A DNA stretch of 17,283 nt from the IMG/VR virus record IMGVR_UViG_2548877009_000010, positions 1-17,283 of that record. One strand, written 5' to 3'. Below are positions 9,001-12,000 of this stretch, in pieces. The number at the start of each line of letters is the position of its first letter. Positions within the stretch are counted from its first letter, which is position 1. Position numbers: made by a program. Source of the stretch: a virus. Lineage: Duplodnaviria; Heunggongvirae; Uroviricota; Caudoviricetes.

Positions 9001-12000
9001 AGGGCGTCTGATTCGCGTGAATCAGGGCGGTAAATTTCGTTACTGCATACCGGGCGCTGATTTACCGGCAGAGCCGGAAGCTGCATCCGTAGCGGAAACC
9101 GATGGTAAAGCCTTTCCTCAGCCAGCAGGTGTTGCGTTACCAGTCCAGGAAACGACGACACAGGAAGAAATGAAAACAGAAATCGTGGAAGACATTGTGA
9201 AGTTACAGCCATCGGTCACCGAAACGAAAGCAGATGACCTGATTCTACCATCGCTGCATGTGGCTAACCGCGAGCTGCGCCGGGCAAAAGGTCAGGTTCA
9301 GAAGTGGGAGCGAGTCTGCGCCGCGCTGCGGGAGCTGAATAAGTGCCGGGATATTCTCCGGGATATTACCGCCACCAGAGAACAGCAGCGGTGAGTGGGT
9401 GGAAGACGTGGTGCCGGGCTGAAATTCTGATACTCCGGCAGTGCGCGGGAACAATGAAGGTAAAAAGCATTGGCGCGCTTATCGGACGAACTGAAGCGGC
9501 AGTGAGAACGAAGGCACGGGAGCTGGGCATCAGCATGATGTTACGTGGTGATTTTCACCCGTCGGCAAAATATTCACAGCGTGATATTGAGCTGGCGCGG
9601 CAACTGCATCAGCGCGGTGTACCCCGACGGGAAATTGCCGAAAAGTTCGGAATGAAGTTGCGTGCAGTGAATAACTACGTTTATTTCGACAGGAGGGTTC
9701 AGGCGTGAGGGTGAGAATTTATATCGCCGGTCCAATGACGGGATATGAAAATTTCAACCGCGAGGCATTTCACAGGGCGGAAGAAGCACTGAAACGGGAA
9801 GGGCATACCGTCTTAAACCCGGCAGTACTTCCGGACGGGCTGACACAGCCGCACTACATGGATATTTGCATGGCAATGATTCGTTGTGTGGATGCGGTTT
9901 ATATGCTGAATGGCTGGCAGCGGTCAGCGGGCGCTAAGGCAGAGCTGGCACTGGCGGAGAAACTGGGGCATGCGGTGATTTATCAGGAGGTGGCTCAATG
10001 AGAGAGGTTAACTATGAGGCGCTTCGTGAGGCAGCACAAAACTATCAGTCGACGCTGGCGTGGTATCAGGCTATCCCGGACAGCCCAAATGCTGAACGGG
10101 ATTGTGATGCGGCTCTTGCTGCGTTTAAGCGTCACATCCGTCATCGGGAAGCGGATATTATCGCTGATTTGCTGGATGGACTGGAAGAAGCAAAATCACA
10201 ACTCAACGAGCAACGTGAGTATTACGAAGGTGTTATCTCGGATGGGAGTAAGCGCATTGCTGAACTGGAAGCGCGGGAAGTTCAATTACCGACTCGCTAC
10301 GACCTTCGATATGGACACCCGATAAATGCAGATGAGCGACAAGTCATGATACCTAAAGAAAATGGCAGTTGGCTTTACCTGATTGACCTAGAACACGCAT
10401 TACGCGTCGCTGGCATTCGCATCAAAGGAGAGGAGCATGGAAATAAAACCAGAAGATGAGTTAAGTAATATTGTTTTATTTCCGGTAAAAGAGGATGACC
10501 CACGTAATCAGGTTAATTTTCTTTATGAGCCATCGGAAAGACCATACTGCCATCACGCCTCTGTCCGGGTTGACGAAAAAGAGCGTCAGGTCCGCTGTAA
10601 AATCTGCGGTTCAGTTGTGGAGCCGTTTGACTGGATGCTCTCTGTGGCGAAAAGAGAAACCAGACTGGCAGATGATGTAAAGCTATTGCGCCAGGAGGAA
10701 CAGGAAAGGCGAAAAAATATAGAAAAGTTAATTCAGATTGAGCGTAACGCGAAAGCGCGGATACGCAGGGCGTCAAAATCCAGAACTGAATAATTAAATT
10801 CAGCACTGTTAAAAATTTAATCCTTAACCGGAGGGATTCCTGCACCCTCAGAACATAAGGAGACCGCCTGAAAGGGTGGTAATGAAAAATGACTGAATTA
10901 ACCAAAGAGCAATTAATCAAGGAAGCCAAATTAAAAATAGCGGTTGCGAACTGTTACCCTAATTCAGAGATGGCCAGGGTAGAGGGTGAGCTATTCAAAA
11001 TTGCACTGGCATCGCTGGAAGCAGAACCGATAGCGTGGGAATGCGGTGAAAACATAATCCTGTTTAACCCTGACACAGTTGAAGCATACGCAAAACGTGC
11101 GGAAATATCACCTAAACCACTATTCTCCGCGCCGCCAGCGCTGGTAGTGCCTGATAAGTTGCCGCGTGAATACAGAAACGGTTGGCCTCTTGCGTATAGT
11201 GATTATGCTGAAGGCTGGAACGACTGCCGCGAAGCCATGCTTCAGGGAGATAAATCATGATTAATCGTATCAAGCTGGAGCACATCCTCGAATATACCAG
11301 GCAGCAGAGGCATATTGGTCAGCATTGTAAAATTCCACCAGGAGATATGGTTGAAATCATGGAGATTGCCATGCGCAAGGCTGGCAATTCTCCGGTAACT
11401 CCGGATGGTTGGATAAGCTGTAGTGAGCGAATGCCGCCAGTTGGTGTTGATGTACAACTGTTTGTGTCCAGCACGGGTGAACAGTTTACAGGTTTTAACC
11501 TGGATAATACGGGTGACTTCCAGTATGCGCAGTGTTTCGGTGCGCCCATCGTGTGTGAAGCCACACACTGGATGCCGCTACCAGAACTGCCGAAGGAGGT
11601 GCGCCAATGAGCTGGCCTGAAGCCTTCTCAAATGTTGGTATTGCAATGGCGGTGGCGCTGGTTGTGTATTCGATTTGCCGCTGGGGATAAATTGCTGAAA
11701 AAAGATCCCGACACACACATGAGTCGGGATCTTTGATTTATATAGCCTACGAATCCGCCAGTAAGAGAGGGGGCGGACGGTTTATTCTAATACTGGAATT
11801 ATGTGGGGAAAAGTTTATAAGAAATCGGTTTCATAACTTTGTCCGCCATGATAAATACCTGCGATAAAGACTTTATTGCCATCAACGGCAAAAGCAATAA
11901 TCGTTCTGTGGCGGAAGTGAGTTACCCGCATTCCCTGTCGAATATCATCGCGTTTATTGCCCCGATGCGGGAATGTGGAAAACCCATCAAGATAATCAAG

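Follow-up and report, generated by a model that had tools for sequence, protein, structure and literature searches.

The 17,283-nucleotide stretch analysed here (IMG/VR record IMGVR_UViG_2548877009_000010, positions 1 to 17,283; hereafter the window) is the early region of a lambdoid prophage. The pattern of sequence change across related loci shows that a short open reading frame (ORF) on its plus strand, at positions 11607-11690, is a genuine protein-coding gene belonging to an undescribed family of 27-residue microproteins. The ORF comprises 27 codons followed by TAA and encodes MSWPEAFSNVGIAMAVALVVYSICRWG, which is predicted to form a single-pass membrane helix from W3 to W26. Taken whole, the best explanation of our observations is that the product is a delayed-early membrane microprotein, made by coupled translation and lying N-out/C-in, that packs against another membrane helix; we give this reading a probability of about one half.

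The signals for translation of the small ORF lie within the gene that precedes it. This gene (11257-11610, plus strand), annotated in RefSeq at the near-identical locus L001, encodes a 117-residue protein with a DUF551 domain (PF04448, E=5e-13). Inside its last codons (K-E-V) is the Shine-Dalgarno (SD) sequence AAGGAGGTG (11593-11601), 5 nucleotides (nt) before the ATG, all 9 nt of which are perfectly complementary to the 3' end of 16S rRNA; the longer SD string GAAGGAGGTG sits at 11592-11601. The ATG in turn overlaps the upstream TGA (11608-11610) in an ATGA at 11607-11610, an arrangement suited to termination-reinitiation coupling. Since the overlap is accompanied by an SD embedded in the upstream gene, we infer that the small ORF is translated by coupling from the upstream gene's mRNA. 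A hydrophobic 27-residue ORF with a near-consensus SD, and an ATGA overlap with the stop of a DUF551 gene, were the core of the original prediction and are confirmed here. By itself the ORF is unremarkable in size, there being 57 ORFs of at least 20 residues in 3.5 kb, and the pattern AGGAGG-N4-9-ATG occurs twice in the window against 0.65 occurrences expected by chance. ORF size and SD alone can therefore arise by chance, and the case beyond chance rests on comparison with other loci.

That comparison reveals a closely kept arrangement. Among 136 pattern matches (the window and the loci then collected), 135 have the ATGA overlap and 134 encode exactly 27 residues. The BP-4795-like loci (n=25) read ATGATGA, the upstream gene stopping at the first TGA, so that the ATGA overlap is also present if the start is taken one codon earlier. 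An SD-like element precedes the ORF in 217/217 family loci, and in 158 of these 8 nt or more can pair with the 3' end of 16S rRNA. The small gene has no promoter of its own, and a strong SD is built into the last codons of whichever gene precedes it. The SD is exposed: the RNA fold around it is no more stable than that of shuffled sequence (z=-0.68), and the pairing of GAAGG in the SD with CCUUC, seen in the fold of the window, is not kept in the other alleles read, where the site GCCTTC is GCATTC. An SD-sequestering hairpin was rejected on these two grounds. We also rejected a C-terminal extension of the DUF551 protein produced by programmed frameshifting, because the ATG is conserved in 135/136 matches with a well-spaced SD and the peptide also follows genes that do not encode DUF551; no slippery heptamer of the form X XXY YYZ was seen in the junction sequences inspected. 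A second junction of the same type is present in the window at 9985-10001 (AGGAGGTGGCTCAATGA), where a strong SD in the end of a DUF4406 gene is followed by an ATGA leading into the start of an Ea22-like gene (9998). Coupling of this kind is therefore the house style of the operon.

Selection on the encoded protein was assessed with a set of loci collected by means of an anchor lying wholly upstream of the ORF, CCNCAGGAGGTGAATCAATGA, which avoids bias towards an intact frame. In the 123 untruncated phage loci obtained, the 27-codon ORF is intact in 121, with one truncated and one lacking its stop. Conservation in relatives, including the Shiga toxin (Stx) phages, had been proposed as a check on the original prediction, and it is borne out, the 84-nt module being carried by 933W, VT2-Sakai and BP-4795 alike. 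Between the 30 distinct alleles, as many as 30 of the 84 nt differ, without a single insertion or deletion. The pooled ratio of non-synonymous to synonymous change (pN/pS) is 0.33 in the frame of the ORF compared with 1.38 and 1.67 in the other sense frames, both of which carry stops in 30/30 alleles. The minimum numbers of substitutions at codon positions 1, 2 and 3 are 18, 13 and 34, respectively (chi-square p=0.004). The stop, too, is kept in place, at codon 28 in 214/217 loci, as TAA in 200 and TGA in 14.

The family consensus is M-[ST]-W-P-[ED]-A-F-x-T-V-G-[IV]-A-M-A-V-A-[LF]-V-V-Y-S-I-C-R-W-G. Structure prediction with AlphaFold2, run without an alignment, gives one continuous 24-residue helix from W3 to W26 with a mean predicted local distance difference test score (pLDDT) of 89. 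Residues A6-C24 form an uncharged 19-mer whose mean Kyte-Doolittle hydropathy is 1.96 in the window and about 2.1-2.42 in commoner variants, in line with the earlier suggestion of an apolar core sufficient for one transmembrane helix. Across 37 distinct intact variants, part of which were gathered by codon-aware patterns though the anchor-based subset gives the same picture, the invariant or near-invariant positions are M1, W3, P4, E/D5, A6, G11, A15, A17, Y/F21, S22, I23, C24, R25, W26 and G27; the remaining helix positions drift among I, V, L, M, F and A. On the predicted helix, G11, A15 and S22 fall on one face and A6, A13 and A17 on the opposite face, and these small-residue stripes are of the kind that would mediate tight helix-helix packing. 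The sole acidic residue is N-terminal and the sole basic residue C-terminal. Natural C-terminal extensions are mostly basic additions (GKNVRRD, GDK, GK), with GE also found. Given a basic residue and mostly basic extensions at the C-terminal end, the positive-inside rule predicts an N-out/C-in topology. Frame-specific selection, the preservation of length, ATGA, SD and stop, and the predicted helix together support the proposal that a real gene for a small transmembrane peptide is coupled to the DUF551 gene. As a separate observation, four proteins (P0048, P0050-P0052) contain in-frame expansions of Ala-Met or Ala-Val dipeptides, corresponding to about 11640-11660 in the window, with helices of 31-35 residues (for example, ...GIAMAMAMAMAVAL...); we attribute these to slippage at GCNATG/GCNGTG hexanucleotides.

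The gene keeps its form while its neighbours change on both sides. At each lambdoid, P1-like and Avunavirus locus inspected, the ORF has the same 27-codon length and the annotated upstream gene ends 1-4 nt from the ATG. That upstream gene is L0139 in 933W, a DUF551 gene in BP-4795 and in the P1-like Punavirus, a DUF551 gene labelled 'Ea22' in PhiR12_1, EaA in Avunavirus 24-2-1 and a gene for a hypothetical protein in Av-05. Four or more unrelated families are represented in this position (DUF551, the 933W L0139 family, a family ending ...LISVEDILR and EaA-like proteins), and they share no Pfam domain. On the other side, the neighbour in 201 loci is hok/sok in 92, DUF4222-xis-int in 56, a convergent parE/parD pair in 10, DUF968 directly in 6 and something else in 37. 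With 92 hok and 10 parDE modules in the slot just 3' of the ORF, this position is a hotspot for addiction modules. When contexts that are otherwise unrelated are aligned as nucleotides, homology starts at the ATG and stops at the stop codon (BLAST matches H38 and H40). These boundaries show that the small gene moves as a discrete module among phages of Escherichia coli and Shigella.

The module is widespread within a narrow host range. Of 50,697 phage records searched with tblastn, 96 contain the peptide. It occurs in Traversvirus (933W-like), Marienburgvirus (BP-4795-like), Punavirus (P1-like) and virulent Avunavirus phages. In the last of these, the ATGA-coupled ORF lies among early genes near the DNA polymerase gene in Av-05 (L219, 4001-4084) and 24-2-1 (L006), so the family is not limited to temperate phages. 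With blastn, the module was found in 1751 of 5426 complete E. coli genomes, about a third, with a median of 2 copies and a maximum of 9; 162 of its places in E. coli are on plasmids of ~97 kb, the size of P1-like phage-plasmids. When one genome for each of 185,579 prokaryotic species was searched with a codon-aware pattern, the only matches came from E. coli, Shigella flexneri, Escherichia sp. and three very short contigs in unrelated taxa, the last being probably contamination. Run exhaustively against 1.84 billion cluster representatives, phmmer gave just 23 matches, nearly all of them short peptides. In the CPS-53 prophage of E. coli K-12, the DUF551 gene yfdS is followed directly by yfdT and, as judged from the annotation only, there is no gap for such an ORF.

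As to how the peptide might act, its gene is the final one of an accessory block in the rightward early operon, upstream of Q. From this place in the early transcript we infer the timing: the peptide is expected soon after induction or infection, at any time when the early gene in front of it is translated, and not in the repressed lysogen. Being too short to emerge from the ribosome tunnel before release, the 27-mer would insert into the inner membrane post-translationally; this route has been shown for YohP, also of 27 residues, and would be expected for a peptide too short for co-translational capture by the signal recognition particle (review PMC12648545). The helix W3-W26 would then span the inner membrane with its acidic N-terminal end (WPEA) in the periplasm and its R25-W26 end in the cytoplasm. 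We envisage that it packs specifically against another membrane protein, most plausibly a conserved inner-membrane protein of the host, modulating or blocking it in the early phase of phage development. The contacts would be made by the invariant stripes G11/A15/S22 and A6/A13/A17 together with the near-invariant juxtamembrane ends. A specific interaction is favoured over bulk hydrophobicity because the juxtamembrane motifs and the GxxxA stripe are near-invariant while the middle of the helix varies among I, V, L, M and F. That the peptide is a modulator acting through helix-helix packing, and not a non-specific membrane-damaging toxin, is on the strength of these residue patterns a tentative assignment, somewhat short of an even chance.

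Several points weigh against the reading of the ORF as an early membrane microprotein of this kind. Small hydrophobic peptides are often toxic if over-produced, and a toxin-antitoxin module lies directly downstream in about half of the loci. Many loci were gathered with codon-aware patterns, which are biased towards conservation, the upstream-anchored set alone being unbiased. The inspected portion of the ribosome profiling (Ribo-seq) small-gene table for enterohaemorrhagic E. coli (Sakai) lists nothing shorter than 93 bp, so that an 84-nt ORF apparently falls below its size limit. Finally, pN/pS is equally low, 0.28, in the antisense frame whose wobble positions coincide with those of the ORF, and this frame is open in 30/30 alleles. 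The low value is the expected mirror effect of selection on the sense strand, and it would mislead a naive screen for antisense genes. Because the two strands give equally low ratios, the strand call rests on the conservation of start, stop and SD, together with the absence from the antisense frame of any conserved start. The antisense open stretch continues into the variable flanks, and its first start is at sense nt 23-26 in most loci or is missing altogether; with no conserved start or stop, this frame cannot explain conservation across all 84 nt, and an antisense gene was rejected.

The main rival explanation holds that the peptide is itself a membrane-damaging toxin, a host-shutoff or depolarising peptide of the 'kil' type that would oligomerise through its two small-residue faces and so perturb the inner membrane. 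We see this as unlikely, although with an appreciable minority chance. In size, hydrophobicity and possession of a single predicted helix, the peptide resembles type I toxins (review PMC12648545). The likeness to Hok/Gef, IbsC, ShoB, DinQ, ZorO and TisB, of which DinQ also has 27 residues, takes in a prophage location and frequent proximity to hok/sok, or in our loci to parDE. Small residues on opposite faces of the helix would permit self-association, and no antitoxin would be needed for a peptide made only on derepression of the early operon, as its gene would be silent in lysogens under the prophage repressor. The anatomy of the gene nevertheless argues against a classical type I toxin. It has neither an antisense or small-RNA antitoxin, nor its own promoter, nor a long structured 5' untranslated region, and its SD is near-consensus, exposed rather than sequestered and coupled to early-gene translation. 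A search of Rfam with both strands matched no RNA family at the locus and no promoter-like site was found nearby on the minus strand, a result that does not fully exclude a novel, unmodelled antisense RNA. There is in any case no conserved space for an antisense RNA gene, because the conserved module is the ORF itself and the flanks vary on both sides. Up to 9 copies of the gene are tolerated per genome. Both termini are near-invariant, whereas type I toxins such as IbsC accept substitutions at many positions. Lastly, the peptide lacks the cationic or amphipathic character that is typical of pore formers.

The tight junction with the upstream gene invites the further suggestion that the peptide is a membrane anchor or partner subunit for the upstream protein (DUF551, Ea22-like or EaA-like), delivered in cis by coupled translation and tethering a soluble protein to the membrane. 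ATGA coupling is near-universal in the family, which speaks for an anchor, but such overlaps are commonplace in packed phage operons. The upstream partners belong to at least four families without a common Pfam domain, and a single peptide allele can follow different partners, which makes a dedicated anchor rather improbable. Rare in-frame fusions might be cited in its favour: P0057 is a 143-residue Ea22-like protein joined to the peptide, and a 236-residue fusion occurs in L002 (E. coli strain 317, 2374-3084). In L002, the upstream gene carries a frameshift close to its 3' end that brings the small ORF into frame, and since the intact counterpart of that gene in L221 (strain DEF2, 575-1204) keeps the normal ATGA junction, this fusion is a frameshift accident. 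NCBI names contig-end fragments of the peptide 'DUF551 domain-containing protein, partial', a misnomer that could likewise be taken to indicate an anchor. Clusters at 90% identity mix 27-residue peptides with DUF551 proteins of 121 and 185 residues that end ...PEPPQEVNQ and do not contain the peptide; a DUF551 fusion was therefore rejected, this being an artefact of clustering and naming that hides the family.

A role for the 84 nt as DNA or RNA, whether as a linker for mosaic recombination, as a leader peptide or an attenuator of the terminator that follows, or as an antisense gene, is highly improbable: the module does sit exactly at mosaic joints, and its stop in the window is only 10 nt from a hairpin whose 5' arm a terminating ribosome could touch, but substitutions cluster at third codon positions, replacements are conservative, the ATG, SD and position of the stop are kept while the identity of the stop codon varies, the terminator is absent in most contexts, the local RNA fold is not significant and the neighbouring genes are all read on the sense strand.

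Returning to a membrane microprotein that packs against a partner helix, the peptide is best filed as a new family of a familiar type, that of small single-pass membrane proteins encoded by phages. By prediction it resembles the small inner-membrane regulators of E. coli (AcrZ, MgrB, MgtS, PmrR, KdpF and CydX), which have 50 residues or fewer, one hydrophobic helix with very short tails, interfacial Trp or Tyr and one topology-setting basic residue, and whose genes are routinely missed by annotation pipelines. It differs from them in showing no sequence similarity in Pfam, NCBIfam or PHROGs (the best match being kdpF, E=2.1) and in being phage-borne, mobile and coupled within phage early operons, whereas their genes have stress-regulated host promoters. 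HK97 gp15 and T4 Imm are small phage inner-membrane proteins of the kind that block superinfection or act on host membrane machinery, dispensable accessory gene products that bind host membrane components. Such proteins are larger than the peptide, have no sequence relationship to it and in some cases are prophage-expressed, whereas expression of the small ORF is predicted to be early-lytic. Holins and pinholins are also small phage-encoded membrane proteins; they typically have at least 60 residues, usually more than one transmembrane domain and a charged C-terminal tail, and they are encoded, alongside endolysin and spanin, in the late lysis cassette downstream of Q. A holin or pinholin was rejected, as the peptide has 27 residues with a tail of R-W-G only and its gene lies in early operons, upstream of DUF968-RusA-Q or of xis-int.

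A more specific and correspondingly more doubtful version of our proposal is that the peptide is a mobile, dedicated effector that docks on one conserved inner-membrane machine of the host through its WPEA and YSICRWG ends and the GxxxA stripe. Candidate targets could include a DNA-entry or transport channel, FtsH/HflKC, or a membrane-acting abortive-infection or Hok-type toxin. If such docking occurs, it would control superinfection, host takeover or evasion of defence, and this uncalled gene might then account for part of the phenotypes described for deletions of 'exo-xis' and the nin region in Stx phages.

The original description of the peptide as unannotated stands for most of the records inspected. 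In RefSeq, the 82-nt gap is left empty in four of five genomes, and the fifth (L002) merges the ORF into the frameshifted upstream gene as the 236-residue 'hypothetical protein'; the records of 933W, BP-4795, Av-05 and the P1-like phages likewise have no gene called in the gap. It does not stand for GenBank as a whole, since some submissions call the peptide 'hypothetical protein', 'bacteriophage protein' or 'prophage protein', an identical peptide being, for example, BAI35516.1. Scans of five family members against Pfam, PHROGs, NCBIfam and PADLOC gave only noise (DUF7220, B12D and kdpF). The best Pfam match, DUF7220 (PF23858), was rejected: it was obtained for one of the five members tested, with 14.4 bits against a gathering cutoff of 28 and E=0.05. 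A full-text literature search for the peptide motif gave nothing relevant, and our literature searches found no paper that mentions the peptide and no Ribo-seq study of an induced Stx lysogen. The sequence is absent from the supplementary material of two studies, the Ribo-seq paper on small genes of Sakai and an Enterobacteriaceae microproteome preprint.

That the early regions of phages hold tiny hydrophobic accessory genes is not surprising in itself; the present finding is solid and widespread. The family is a well-supported candidate member of the small membrane proteome that lies hidden in phages, and its annotation would close a systematic gap. The genetics of the accessory early regions of Stx phages (exo-xis and nin) has been interpreted without this peptide, which, if made early after induction as predicted, could affect host physiology as toxin production begins. 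It also offers a compact test case for single-helix phage peptides, natural variation having already marked the residues that matter.

The other features of the window are those of a lambdoid early region. On the minus strand are the integrase gene (1-1131) and, adjoining it, an ORF for a large protein of 823 residues (1422-3893) that has an Rv2179c-like 3'-5' exoribonuclease domain in its C-terminal 170 residues (E=2e-60) and no Pfam match in its N-terminal 640 residues; a CI-type repressor gene follows, also on the minus strand (5699-6337). The rightward genes are, in order, those for a YdaT-like protein, an O-like replication protein (DUF1376 and DnaT domains), a lambda-P homologue, DUF1627, DUF4406, an Ea22-like protein, two proteins of unknown function, DUF551 and the small ORF. 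Past the small ORF come convergent ParE and ParD genes, DUF968, RusA, the Q antiterminator and a DNA methylase. We would expect expression of the small gene from a PR-type operon here and from a PL-type operon where it precedes xis-int. The DUF1627 gene, intact in the window (8660-9394), is annotated as N-terminally incomplete in strain E2863, which has a near-identical prophage (L001, 1-1138). There it stands directly after an IS1203 transposase gene, which suggests that IS1203 interrupts it in that strain.

The small ORF had been described as ending at a terminator, and a hairpin of this type is indeed present, beginning 10 nt past the stop. It consists of AAAGATCCCGAC / GTCGGGATCTTT with flanking T and A runs (11701-11745) and has the features of a bidirectional intrinsic terminator. 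Its 12 base pairs (11701-11712 with 11723-11734) fold with -24.2 kcal/mol (z=-5.05). The plus-strand tail is UCUUUGAUUUAU; the better U-tract, UUUUUU, is on the minus strand and ends the convergent parDE operon, the genes of which were mapped on the window from the RefSeq annotation of L001 as the ParE toxin (11815-12114, minus strand) and the ParD antitoxin (12120-12377, minus strand). The hairpin accompanies the small ORF only where parDE follows. Because it is absent wherever something else follows, the terminator belongs to the parDE module and is not a property of the gene family.

Where hok follows instead (L003, 3085-3160; L004, 1585-1750), a sequence that resembles the hok mRNA of plasmid R1 at its 5' end begins about 40 nt past the stop of the small ORF. 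It would appear that the hok promoter fills the gap after the small ORF at these loci, leaving no space for a terminator; if so, early transcripts reading through would carry hok with an abnormal 5' end.

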